Counted from the first letter of the stretch, positions 36,955-49,970 are shown. The stretch: 64,000 nucleotides of DNA from Alphaproteobacteria bacterium (GCA_965220745.1 CBDCQT010000013.1:320001-384000); one strand, 5' to 3'. Made by a program: numbers and translations. Notes: a model not told the origin generated them from the sequence alone.

Positions 36955-37164
36955 ATTGGCACCATGATCGTCGTCGACTACCGCTTACTGAGTTCCTGGT
37001 GCGACGACGCGCGCTTTCCCGACGGAGCCAAGGGCGACAGGGCATCAGCAATGGGCTAGGTTTGGTCGGCCAGTTCGTTTGGGGCGGGGAGAATGGGGCC
37101 GCGTATCTCTTTCCAAGAGCGGTGCAGCGGTGCCGGCATAGAGCGACACTCGGAGGAAAAGCGG

Positions 37165-38889
37165 ATGAAAGACAGAAAAGTTCTAAGCCGTGATCCACGG
37201 CGCTATACGCTGCCGTCGGAGCGCGCATTGGGCGCCGAGACGCATTCCTATATGCCCGAGCTTTGCGACCAGGTTCGGACGGGCAAGATCAGCCGGCGCG
37301 ACTTCCTGCGTCAGGCGGCGTTGCTCGGCATGGCGACCGGCACGGTCTATGCCATGGCCGACAAGCTGGCCGGAGGCGGTGACGTGATCGGCTCTGCGAT
37401 AGCCGACGAAATGCCAAAGGCGGGCGGCACGCTCAGGGTCTCCATGCGTGTGCAGGAGATGAGCGATCCTGCGTCCTTCGACTGGGGCGAGAAGGCGAAC
37501 GTCGCGCGCTTCATCGTCGAGTATCTGACCCGGACCAAGTCGGATAACGTCACGGTTCCCTACCTCGCCAAGAGTTGGGAGGCCTCCGACGACCTCAAGA
37601 CCTGGGTCTTCCATTTGAACGAGGGCATAACCTGGTCCAACGGCGACGCCTTCACCTCAGCTGACGTGGCCCACACGGTCAACCGCTGGCTCGACCCCGC
37701 GACCGGATCGTCCAACCTCGGGCTCTTCGGCGCCATGGTCGAGGAAGTCGACGGCGTCAAGCGGGGCATCCCCGGTGCGGTCGAGGTGATCGACGACCAC
37801 ACCATCCAATTCAACCTGAAACAGGCCGCTCTGGCCATGCCGGAGAACTTCTACAACTACCCGACCGCCATCGTGCATCGGGGCTTCGGTACGGACTACG
37901 AGGCAAATCTCTCGACGAATCCCATCGGCACTGGCCCGTTCGAGTTGGCCAACTTTGCAGTCGGCGAGGTGGCAATCCTGAAGAGGGCGCGAGACTGGTG
38001 GGCCGGGCCGTTCTACCTCGATGAAATCCACTACTTCGACCACGGCGAGGACACCAACGCCTGGGTCGCAGCGCTGGCGTCGCAGCAGGTAGACACGCTT
38101 TACCGATTGCCCAACAGCGCAATCGAGACGGTACAGGCTCTGCCATTCATGGAGATCCACAAGGCGACAACGGCGCAGACCGCGGTCATGCGCTTCCGCG
38201 TTACCGAGAAGCCCTTCGACAATCTCAAGCTCCGCCAGGCGGTGGCGGCCTGCATGGACCATCAAGAGATCCTGGACAAGGCGTTCAAGGGTTACGGCCA
38301 GATCGCCGAGAATCATCATGTTTGTCAGATCCATCCCGAGTATGCGGCGCTGCCGCCGCTCAAGCGGGATATAGAGAAGGCGAAGGCGCTCTTGGCCGAG
38401 GCCGGCTATGCCGATGGGATCACGCTCGAGATCGCCAACGGCGACACTGAGGGCCCCTGGCAGACGGACGCCTGTGCGATATTCAAGAACCAGGCTGCGC
38501 CGGCGGGCATCAATATCGAGATCAACAAGATGCCGGCCAGCCAGTACTGGGAGGTCTGGGACAAGGCTCCGTGGGGCTACACCGCCTGGACGCATCGTGC
38601 GCTAGGCACCATGGTGCTGGGGCTTGCCTACCGGGCCGGCGTGCCGTGGAACGAATGCGCCTACGACAACCCGGCGTTCGATGCAGCGCTCGACGATGCA
38701 GAGGGTACGCTCGACGTGAACGAGCGCAAGAAGAAGATGGCTGTCTGCCAGAAGATCCTGCAGGACGATGCGATCATCCCGCAGCCCTTCTGGCGCTCTG
38801 TGTTCAAGGCATCGAATAAGCGGGTGAAGGGTCTGATGACCCACCCCACGCTTTACCACCAGTTCCACGAGGTTTGGCTGGACGGTTGA
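37165..38889 (+). CDS. Dpp/Opp-type (family 5) ABC substrate-binding protein, Tat-exported
   Basis: SRRDFLR motif; LAKSWEASDD..TW.F.L, W.NG..FT..DV, PIGTGPF; start at MKDRK with a GGAGG RBS. Confidence 0.9.
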   Translation: MKDRKVLSRDPRRYTLPSERALGAETHSYMPELCDQVRTGKISRRDFLRQAALLGMATGTVYAMADKLAGGGDVIGSAIADEMPKAGGTLRVSMRVQEMSDPASFDWGEKANVARFIVEYLTRTKSDNVTVPYLAKSWEASDDLKTWVFHLNEGITWSNGDAFTSADVAHTVNRWLDPATGSSNLGLFGAMVEEVDGVKRGIPGAVEVIDDHTIQFNLKQAALAMPENFYNYPTAIVHRGFGTDYEANLSTNPIGTGPFELANFAVGEVAILKRARDWWAGPFYLDEIHYFDHGEDTNAWVAALASQQVDTLYRLPNSAIETVQALPFMEIHKATTAQTAVMRFRVTEKPFDNLKLRQAVAACMDHQEILDKAFKGYGQIAENHHVCQIHPEYAALPPLKRDIEKAKALLAEAGYADGITLEIANGDTEGPWQTDACAIFKNQAAPAGINIEINKMPASQYWEVWDKAPWGYTAWTHRALGTMVLGLAYRAGVPWNECAYDNPAFDAALDDAEGTLDVNERKKKMAVCQKILQDDAIIPQPFWRSVFKASNKRVKGLMTHPTLYHQFHEVWLDG

Positions 38890-38896
38890 GCAGAGA

Positions 38897-38928
38897 GCGG
38901 CGCGGGAGGCACAAGTCTCCCGCGCCGC
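38897..38928 (+). terminator. Strong stem-loop after the SBP gene
   Basis: GCGGCGCGGGAG-N8-CTCCCGCGCCGC followed by GATTT. Confidence 0.6.
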
Positions 38929-38968
38929 GATTTCCACTTGGGCAAGTGCCCTTGGTGCGGGGCGTCTA

Positions 38969-39239
38969 CTAGCCTGGATTTCTCACCAATGTCACAGCCT
39001 GCGTCGCGCCCAGACGTTCGATCCGCCAGGAGCGGGCCGAAAAGCGTATCAGGGAATACGGTTGAGGTTCGCGACGCCGCGGGCGAGCGCCGGGGCGCGA
39101 CCCGAAGGGCGGTGCTTTCAGGCCGACAGAGTGCGTCAAGCCGTTTGCCCGATGCCCCACATCGCGCTGCACGGCTTTCCTGCTCTGTCGGCCTGAAAGC
39201 ACCGCGCAGACCATGACATTGGTGAGAAAGCCGGGCTAG
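38969..39239 (+). mobile_element. Non-autonomous palindromic element (MITE/RPE-like), copy 1
   Basis: CTAG at both ends; 26-bp terminal inverted repeat (24/26 matched); perfect 23-bp internal stem 39109-31/39183-205; homologous to 49699-49970. Confidence 0.8.
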
Positions 39240-39254
39240 ACACCGGCGTTCGGC

Positions 39255-40187
39255 ATGGTCCAGCTGATCATCCGGCGCATCGGCATGATGATCCTCATCA
39301 TGCTCGTGGTCGCTCTGTTGCTTTTCCTTATTAACGAGGGCGACCCCCGCCTCATCGCCCGCAGCGTTCTCGGCCCCTACGCGCAAGACCAGCAGCTCGA
39401 CACCTGGGTCATCGAGAACGGCTACGACCGTTCCGTCATTGTCCGCTATTTCGAATGGATCGGCCGAATATTCTCCGGCGATCTCGGAGACTCGGTCATC
39501 TACAAGAGGCCGGTCAGCGAGATCTTCTGGGACCGCCTGGGCAATACGGGCATCCTGGCGGGCGTCACCTTCGTCATCATGGTGCTGATCGCACTCACCC
39601 TCGGCGTGCTGGCGGGGATGAAGGAAGGCTCCCTGCAGGACCGGGCGATCTCGGTCTTCTCGATCATCACCACCTCGATCCCCGAATATGCGAGCGCCGT
39701 CTTCCTGGTCGGGATCTTCGTCTTCTGGCTCGGCTGGTTGCCCGGCACCTCGTCGATGACGTCCGGGTTCGACCCGGTTCAGATGATCCTGCCTGTACTT
39801 GTGCTGACCTTATATGGCTTCGGCTACATCGCGCGCATGACGCGCGCGTCGATGGCCGAGGTGATGACCACGCCTTACATACGAACGGCGGTGCTCAAGG
39901 GCCTGCCCTACCGGCACATCATCCTCAAGCACGCCTTGAGAAACGCGCTGATCGCGCCCTTCACCGTGATCATGCTGCAGATCAACTGGCTGCTGTCCGG
40001 CGTGGTCGTGACCGAGTTTGCCTTCGGCTACAAGGGGTTCGGCGCGCTGCTTCTGGAGGCGGCGCTCCGGCGCGACATCTTCGTCATCGAGGCCTGCGGC
40101 GTCGCGGCGGTCTTCGTCGCGGTCTTCACCCAGACCGTAGGCGATCTTGGCTACACCTATCTGAATCCGAGGATCAGGTTCAAGTGA
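39255..40187 (+). CDS. Dpp/Opp ABC permease (DppB-like)
   Basis: GDLGDS, SIPEY, ARMTRASM.EV, YIRTA..KG, HALRNAL, NPRI. Confidence 0.92.
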   Translation: MVQLIIRRIGMMILIMLVVALLLFLINEGDPRLIARSVLGPYAQDQQLDTWVIENGYDRSVIVRYFEWIGRIFSGDLGDSVIYKRPVSEIFWDRLGNTGILAGVTFVIMVLIALTLGVLAGMKEGSLQDRAISVFSIITTSIPEYASAVFLVGIFVFWLGWLPGTSSMTSGFDPVQMILPVLVLTLYGFGYIARMTRASMAEVMTTPYIRTAVLKGLPYRHIILKHALRNALIAPFTVIMLQINWLLSGVVVTEFAFGYKGFGALLLEAALRRDIFVIEACGVAAVFVAVFTQTVGDLGYTYLNPRIRFK

Positions 40188-49698: not shown

Positions 49699-49970
49699 CT
49701 AGCCCGCATTTCTCATCAGGGTCACGGCCTGCGTCGCGCCTAGGCGTTCGATCCGCCAGGAGCGGACCGAAAAGCGTATCAGGGAATACGGTTGAGGCCC
49801 GCGACGACGCGGGCGGGCGCCCGGGCACGACCCGAAGGGCGGCGCTGTCCGGCCGGCAGGGTGCGTCACGGCCCTTGCCCGATGTCCCCGCATCGCGCTG
49901 CGCGCCGTTCCTACCCTGTCGGCCGGACAGCGCCGCGCAGACCATGACCGTGGTGAGAAATGCGGGCTAG
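49699..49970 (+). mobile_element. Non-autonomous palindromic element (MITE/RPE-like), copy 2
   Basis: CTAG ends; 26-bp terminal inverted repeat; 23-bp internal stem 49839-61/49914-36; ~86% identical to copy 1 by hand alignment. Confidence 0.8.

Follow-up and report, generated by a model that had tools for sequence, protein, structure and literature searches.

Hairpins of the ERIC type are known to show compensatory changes. Together with Correia/NEMIS of Neisseria, RUP and BOX, they belong to the hairpin MITEs, which, like the element described here, are small, non-coding and multi-copy, with terminal inverted repeats and a target-site duplication (reviewed in PMC10969869 and PMC3184786); transcripts of MITEs are typically predicted to form a very stable stem-loop (PMC10969869). 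Our element differs from these in having another parent IS family, in being G+C-rich rather than A+T-rich, and in being multi-branched rather than a single hairpin, with an architecture that is kept down to about 55% sequence identity. The RAYT-mobilised REP/REPIN repeats are likewise intergenic and palindromic and often lie in operons, and REPs measure 20–40 bp and carry GTAG or CGTC heads (PMC3733652). REPs have no structure of terminal inverted repeats and target-site duplication and depend on a Y1 HUH transposase, whereas our element has a target-site duplication and DDE-type ends.

According to ISfinder, the IS1380 family of insertion sequences (ISs) has 4–5-bp direct repeats and ends that start with CC. 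The piggyBac transposons of eukaryotes target TTAA, duplicate 4 bp, excise seamlessly and have ends beginning with CCC. IS1380 transposases form the prokaryotic outgroup in piggyBac trees (PMC10813416), and IS1247 is described as 1672 bp long with inverted repeats of 16/13 and a direct repeat of 5 (PMC3281130). Among members of the IS1380 family (IS1380, IS1247, ISPme1 and ISEcp1; PF13701, DDE_Tnp_1_4), an intact one in a congener shares with our element the terminal 14 nt, and this IS and six others in the present genome share the YTAR target and the 4-bp duplication; the element itself has no transposase gene, spans 263 bp as against about 1650 bp, has a dissimilar interior, and carries inverted repeats of 22–26 bp as against 17 bp in the cognate IS. 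With piggyBac it shares a palindromic tetranucleotide with a central TA (TTAA there, CTAG or TTAA here), the 4-bp duplication and the CCC at the start of the ends, but it is bacterial and non-autonomous. Its cognate transposase matched none of the solved piggyBac chains by sequence; phmmer, run against the PDB with this protein, returned only weak matches to retroviral-integrase cores, the best at E = 0.016. The term 'IS1380' does not occur in the accessible text of a 2024 review of prokaryotic MITEs (PMC10969869), and none of the titles and abstracts listed in literature searches concerned an IS1380-type MITE of this kind.

Two copies of the element lie in a 64,000-nucleotide stretch of an alphaproteobacterial genome (C13:320001-384000; hereafter the window). 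A sequence-only reading of the window had proposed the element as a candidate for an undescribed system; we find instead a MITE whose ends match those of an IS1380-family IS. The best explanation, to which we give a probability of about 80%, is a non-coding IS1380-type MITE that inserts at rare YTAR sites, mostly CTAG, and duplicates 4 bp. Its features are as follows, with positions counted from the first letter of the window.

38969..38972, no strand: left target-site duplication of copy A, CTAG (a single CTAG in congeners G006 and G015; contig of run X15)
38973..39235, + strand: copy A, the MITE proper, 263 bp, CCTGGATTTCTCAC...GTGAGAAAGCCGGG (adds 267 nt relative to empty sites)
38973..38994, + strand: left terminal inverted repeat, the 5' arm of the terminal stem (first 14 nt are an IS1380-type end)
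39003..39101, approximate limits, + strand: branched 5' domain, consensus helices 3–8 (single-sequence fold, consensus fold and pair counts)
39038..39067, + strand: most conserved internal motif, CGAAAAGCGTA-N8-TACGGTTGAGG, a small hairpin with an internal loop (invariant in whole-element BLAST copies)
39101..39109, + strand: mini-hairpin CCC-GAA-GGG, helix 9 (alignment, pair counts)
39109..39205, + strand: long hairpin domain, helix 10 with apical helices 12–14 (self-complementary match, C13:359109-359205)
39214..39235, + strand: right terminal inverted repeat, the 3' arm of the terminal stem (fold, IS ends, pair counts)
39236..39239, no strand: right target-site duplication of copy A, CTAG (same empty sites)
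49699..49702, no strand: left CTAG flank of copy B (sequence, alignment)
49703..49966, + strand: copy B of the MITE, 264 bp (alignment, fold)
49967..49970, no strand: right CTAG flank of copy B (sequence, alignment)

Copies, target duplication and empty sites

The two CTAG-bounded repeats are present as first described, 271 nt at 38969-39239 and 272 nt at 49699-49970, and are 86% identical in an end-to-end alignment whose sole indel, of 1 nt, does fall in a hairpin loop. Their similarity ends exactly at the bounding CTAG, beyond which the flanks are unrelated. A profile search of the whole genome (13 contigs, 4.82 Mb, 67% G+C) found 13 full-length copies, including the two in the window, as well as fragments; the flanks of these copies are unrelated outside a tetranucleotide, and two of the copies are 99% identical to each other. 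The element is short (263–264 bp) and non-coding, the ORFs that overlap it being of the spurious kind of 67% G+C DNA; a coding role is further disfavoured by the pairing pattern and by the copies differing in 1-nt indels.

BLAST with copy A detected the element in 18 of 20 congeners and did not detect it in the other two, both complete genomes of 3.5–3.6 Mb. A motif scan of one genome per species gave at least 80 loci, and among those listed nearly all were in MAGs labelled Rhodospirillales, Rhodospirillaceae, Kiloniellaceae, Pelagibius or Alphaproteobacteria, with a few labelled Hoeflea, Hyphomicrobium, Parvularculaceae or Defluviicoccus and one Saprospiraceae. The scan pattern was the conserved internal motif of 22 nt, whose invariance is thus by construction in the scanned loci (L063–L142) and partly ascertained in divergent copies; pairing was not selected for. 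Among 400 other genomes sampled evenly from the class and searched for exact ends 230–260 nt apart, one (G340) had them, a lower bound given exact matching, and this element, found by its ends alone, carries a variant internal motif, CGAAGGGCGTA. For comparisons across the family we used an alignment (A2) of 78 distinct full-length copies, made by sequence alone, of which 13 came from the genome itself, 23 from congeners and 42 from the motif scan. The terminal inverted repeats of the family correspond to a terminal stem of 22–26 bp, with positions 5–19 nearly invariant in the 78 copies; the terminus of copy A has one private change (CCTGG) relative to the family form.

Identical 4-nt flanks border 37 of the 78 copies (26 CTAG, 6 TTAA, 3 CTAA, 1 TTAG and 1 TTAC), and those of 21 further copies differ at one position; YTAR is fitted by 62 left and 58 right flanks. 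Because non-palindromic flanks are repeated directly as 4 nt, the duplication is one of 4 bp and not of TA. At the site orthologous to copy A, congeners G006 and G015 have the single CTAG that had been predicted for empty sites (...GCGTCTA-CTAG-ACACCGG...), where the two halves of the query overlap by exactly 4 nt, and a contig from run X15 connects 38968 to 39236, omitting 267 nt, with 4 letters common to both sides. From the 4-bp duplication and these empty sites it follows that the element proper measures 263 bp in copy A and 264 bp in copy B, so that each insertion adds 267–268 nt. The orthologous site of copy A is occupied in only 2 of 19 genomes with matches to the query. This genome has only 1935 CTAG sites, a very low number (observed/expected 0.13), and its rarest tetranucleotide is TTAA (757 sites).

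The multiplicity of the element, its flanks and its empty sites therefore support the earlier proposal of a non-autonomous mobile element with a CTAG target, but the TA target offered along with it is contradicted by direct CTAA/CTAA, TTAG/TTAG and TTAC/TTAC flanks and by the 4-nt overlap at the empty sites. The same observations bear on the possibility that the MITE belongs to another family. CTAG is the preferred target of IS630 elements and YTAR that of IS5, so an IS630/Tc1-mariner origin (with the TA lying within the preferred CTAG) or an IS5 origin would fit the flanks. The direct repeats of CTAA (three copies), TTAG and TTAC nevertheless rule against an IS630/Tc1-mariner-derived MITE with a 2-bp TA duplication, the halves at the empty sites overlap by 4 nt rather than 2, and the only IS found to have the same 14-nt ends encodes a PF13701 transposase. 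Membership of either family is, in our judgement, extremely improbable.

The cognate insertion sequence

In line with the sequence-only reading, no transposase of the PF01609 or PF13701 kind is present in the window: every match in the genome to PF01609 or PF13701 lies outside it. The genome has many DDE transposases, only one of which adjoins an end-like site, a PF13701 gene at C12:426715-427977. This gene marks a relic that covers PF13701 positions 4–281 and aligns only to positions 1–1004 of the IS, its left end. Close relatives of the relic (84–92% identity) are intact in G011, G015 and G006; relatives of the cognate IS at 84% identity or above occur in only 3 of the 20 congeners, as against 18 for the MITE. 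The intact IS of G011 is 1647 bp long and present in at least five copies, with ends CCCGGATTTCTCACGAG...CTCGTGAGAAATCCGGG, CTAG on both sides in four of five copies, and an ORF that matches PF13701 at E = 2.2e-149 over profile positions 4–430 of 435. It supplies a transposase gene with matching ends, which the sequence-only reading had suggested looking for: the terminal 14 nt of the MITE equal the ends of the G011 IS at 14 of 14 positions, the family form of the end, CCCGGATTTCTCAC (for example in the copy at C10:794977), being identical to them. Ends of the form CCCG... with 4-bp flanks are found in the MITE and in 11 IS copies and fit the ISfinder definition of the IS1380 family. The interiors of MITE and cognate IS gave no match better than E = 0.08, and we rejected a derivation of the MITE interior from the IS, to which it is unrelated.

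The 14-nt ends of an IS1380-family IS, taken with the 4-bp target, point to a MITE mobilised in trans rather than to a TA-targeting element, and its identity as an IS1380-type MITE is well supported. Judging from the terminal identity and the common target, the transposase of the cognate IS would be what moves the MITE. IS1380 being a bacterial relative of piggyBac, a cut-and-paste movement is likely by analogy, its cuts staggered by 4 nt and its excision seamless. Because this genome holds only the truncated relic of the cognate IS, its copies are probably stranded, unless they are cross-mobilised by six other intact IS1380-family ISs of about 1620 bp (C10:40916-42539, C10:556398, C12:178684, C12:720401, C10:340663 and C13:836234; approximate starts). 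These encode 464-aa transposases that are 35–37% identical, and they form another subgroup than the cognate IS, with ends CCCGAC... that differ from those of the MITE beyond CCCGA. Their direct flanks are CTAA/CTAA, CTAG/CTAG, CTAA/CTAA, TTAG/TTAG, CTAG/CTAG and TTAA/TTAA, which makes the 4-bp YTAR duplication a property of the IS1380 family in this host. Our results extend the bacterial MITEs on record by an IS1380-type family.

Across the 92 end-like sites of the genome, none flanks another kind of transposase with matching ends, and no IS5-family element lies beside any of them, the 33 PF01609 matches of the genome having been only partly inspected for ends. The end-like site at C13:28435 was considered as a parent IS and dismissed, as nothing connects it with the PF13701 fragment close by, which itself lies behind an N-terminal piece of an integrase. 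The surrounding region (C13:26100-28455; L031), with that integrase fragment (Arm-DNA-bind_3), the N-terminally truncated and frameshifted PF13701 fragment and, close to them, a lone MITE-like end, is a graveyard of decayed mobile elements. Separately, the left end of the G011 IS (L144:1474-1530) contains an inverted second end core (TTTCTCACGAG...CTCGTGAGAAAG). The hairpin that results, about 55 nt long and immediately internal to the terminus, may be regulatory or may act as a seed from which MITEs form.

A conserved multi-branched fold

Folded as RNA, copies A and B reach −177.9 and −191.3 kcal/mol (z = −13.3 and −12.7), and none of 200 shuffled sequences was as stable, so that the stability of both folds is far beyond chance. 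The paired substitutions reported by the sequence-only reading can be read directly from the alignment of the two copies: the terminal stem shows G-C to C-G and T-A to G-C swaps, the 23-bp stem has four double changes and a change of A-T to G.T, and the nested stem has three paired changes. Copy B also has one mismatch in each of two stems, which that reading did not mention.

Covariation held up when more copies were compared. The RNAalifold consensus of the 78 copies has 87 pairs in 14 helices, the same helices as in single-sequence folds, and 96.0% of paired cells are formed, compared with 86.7 ± 0.2% in shuffles. As many as 63 of the 87 pairs have changed on both sides, compared with 30.7 ± 3.1 in shuffled alignments (none of 500 reached 63) and with 23–33 when the partners were slid by 1–3 columns. 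Changes on both sides affect 17 of the 22 pairs of helix 1 and 15 of the 16 pairs of helix 10. Four divergent copies (L106, L123, L136 and L141), only 54–56% identical to copy A, still form 91–93% of the pairs, with 33–35 pairs changed on both sides and a length of exactly 272 nt; length is 270–273 nt in 70 of the 78 copies, the other eight having discrete insertions. These results support the earlier proposal of a conserved multi-branched fold under constraint, and provide a natural experiment in which a non-autonomous element of the DDE type keeps 87 pairs, its helix layout and its length at about 55% identity.

Mismatches are mostly private, with 76 of 127 mismatch variant types being singletons, whereas compensated variants are mostly common to several copies (27 singletons among 100 types). 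Copies at orthologous sites drift: one orthologous pair (L008/L046) differs at 7 of 272 positions with flanks 96.5–97.1% identical, and a second pair at 3 of 272 with flanks differing by 2–3%. None of the eight changes at paired sites in these two pairs is compensated; six toggle between Watson-Crick and G.T on the + strand, and one gives A.C. Two of four orthologous pairs were left out, L035 being a duplicate of L001, and L041 and L047 having failed the full-length filter. The private mismatches, the shared compensations and the drift of orthologues together indicate that the fold is kept in lineages that are still transposing and decays slowly in resident copies. We take the fold to be real and its maintenance in such active lineages to be long-lasting.

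Strand, transcription and reasons for keeping the fold

The sequence-only reading had also taken G.T wobbles to mark the + strand as the folding strand. The wobbles exist, but both strands fold equally well, with a mean MFE of −192.5 for + and −193.3 for −, and + the more stable in 39 of 78 copies. There are 58 G.U and 46 A.C variant types (p = 0.28), with 24 singletons each, and 52 pairs show any G.U as against 45 with any A.C. Counted by cells the difference is larger (274 G.U, 108 A.C), but three pairs that are frequent on + (75, 54 and 23 of 78 copies) account for 152 of the G.U cells, whereas each A.C pair occurs in at most 10 copies. For the consensus fold the energies are −137.4 (+) and −114.9 (−). 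A preference for the + strand is at most weak, a non-significant hint that would fit an RNA or a specific DNA strand over a cruciform.

Could the element be a mobile gene for a functional structured RNA, in which the + transcript is active and the inverted-repeat ends give mobility only? The depth of covariation resembles that of functional RNAs (91–93% of pairs at 54–56% identity, with length held at 270–273 nt), unpaired motifs are invariant, and the three common G.U pairs and the consensus fold energy lean toward +. Element-like pieces also occur in contigs from four metatranscriptome runs, many of them in X19 and X20, where summed word depth on the 5' part of the element reaches 181 and 536; these contigs are unstranded and show neither transcription nor organism, and uncovered stretches carry no meaning. 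Against an RNA gene, no described structured RNA family corresponds to the element: neither copy matches Rfam 15 at the gathering threshold, and the only models at E ≤ 1 are for microRNA precursors and IRESs, far below their gathering scores. A consensus scan of 38850-39350 found no sigma-70-like promoter and no intrinsic terminator. Orientation relative to neighbouring genes is unbiased over 39 loci, with 15 upstream genes co-oriented and 13 opposite, and 17 and 13 downstream (crude gene calls, ORFs of at least 90 aa with GC3 > 0.8; no call lay within 500 nt upstream of 11 loci and downstream of 9). A comparison with local GC skew (8 versus 12 of 20 full or partial copies) is uninformative on orientation, as the skew is weak and noisy in a 13-contig assembly. 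The equal per-copy MFE of the two strands, the similar numbers of G.U and A.C types, an occupancy of 2 in 19 genomes at the site of copy A, as expected of selfish DNA, and the evolution of two orthologous pairs at about the rate of their flanks all argue in the same direction. We consider a mobile ncRNA quite improbable, and function as a stand-alone RNA gene is not supported.

Alternatively, the complementarity might have no function, with template switching or repair templated by the opposite arm turning single changes in a palindrome into paired ones. Template switching is reported to be able to create and maintain hairpins (PMC8794818). The strand symmetry of the pattern agrees with such an origin, as do the loop of helix 9, which is GAA here and its exact reverse complement, TTC, in other subfamilies, an inversion that is a signature of template switching, and a diversity among 36 copies that does not differ significantly between paired (0.084) and unpaired (0.111) columns. 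Such a process, however, should not hold a multi-branched layout, the 3–7-bp helices of the 5' domain and overall length at about 45% divergence, nor keep unpaired motifs invariant, and in the orthologous pairs no double change was seen among the eight paired-site changes, a small sample. We regard a mutational by-product as unlikely, though it ranks next after the explanation that we prefer.

The surroundings of copy A raise the question of host use, in which single copies would serve as regulators at the RNA level, for example copy A as a REP-like stabiliser or attenuator in an ABC transporter operon. Copy A is flanked by an SBP_bac_5 gene (37093-38889) and a BPD_transp_1 permease gene (39255-40187) and precedes the start codon of the latter by 16 nt; in E. 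coli, REP elements classically occupy such positions between the genes of an operon. In G011, another species of the genus, copy A is identical at 271 of 271 positions, the CCTGG variant included (L035; G011:C3:1367605-1367875), despite an upstream flank that is about 86–88% identical (88% over 700 nt). The downstream flank, however, is a mosaic, about 85% identical for some 100 nt a short way beyond the element and then 97–100% over more than 1 kb, a pattern suggestive of a recent recombination or transfer event at this locus. With the downstream flank near-identical too, a recombination tract explains the identity of copy A, and we did not count it as selection. Two close congeners lack copy A, and the 39 loci show no orientation bias. 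Host use therefore seems improbable as the source of the fold, and much the same low standing goes to selection at the level of lineages for harmless, compact inserts. Neutral decay, host use and simple binding by transposase each account poorly for the conservation.

The explanation that we prefer, tentatively and at somewhat less than even odds, is that the folded form, a cruciform or a single-strand hairpin, together with the conserved unpaired motifs, is a cis requirement for mobilisation; we rank it above the mutational by-product, and that in turn above selection for compact inserts, host use and an RNA gene. The fold may juxtapose the two ends, or may bind the transposase or a host factor. 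A more specific and more doubtful version is that IS1380-type, piggyBac-related transposition needs the fold, the element being recognised or moved as a folded single strand, as a cruciform or with its own transcript. We know of no DDE transposase of this family documented as needing a folded substrate. If the fold were needed, it would explain why the architecture is kept at about 55% identity, would reveal a DDE family with a structure-dependent substrate, and would give new insight into how IS1380- and piggyBac-like transposases find their substrates.

Two other features were observed near copy A. Upstream of copy A, at 38903-38930, the stop codon of the binding-protein gene is followed by a G+C-rich hairpin, CGCGGGAG-N8-CTCCCGCG, which is also kept in congeners without the MITE. 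On the − strand at 39767-39942, antisense inside the permease ORF, is a match to the Rfam family Cis52_sRNA (Ruegeria) of 60.9 bits (gathering score 56), probably driven by conserved coding sequence and unrelated to the MITE.

The family is also a marker of genome plasticity in marine Rhodospirillales-like bacteria, being found in operons, beside stop codons (four or five of the 13 copies abut one by crude ORF calls) and as a landing pad for IS110-family elements. Two derivatives of 65 bp (C5:210193-210257 and C11:194299-194363), which retain both ends and about 20 nt inside each, indicate internal deletion, and a third, at C13:824033, is 45 bp long. REP elements are a target of IS110-family insertions. 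Here, two copies of the MITE (C13:12372-14072 and C10:219690-221482) are interrupted at the same internal point by an IS110-family element of about 1.5 kb (PF01548 and PF02371); the point belongs to the apical portion of the long hairpin and is equivalent to about 39145 of copy A. A third copy of this IS110 element (C13:159833-161334) lies in a different G+C-rich palindrome, and all three junctions read ...CGCTC, then the IS, then TCGC.... Finally, G+C-rich palindromic modules of 28–30 nt (...CGCGCGC-N-GCGCGCGTGGACGCGCGA...) occupy hairpin loops in L013 (C11:663633-663934), L073, L115, L126 and L130, and the 30-nt module is missing from L061, the G011 orthologue of L013. A loose pattern for the module matches 23 sites in the genome, many of them within another repeat, versus 7 for a reversed control, and the module may be a still smaller mobile palindrome.
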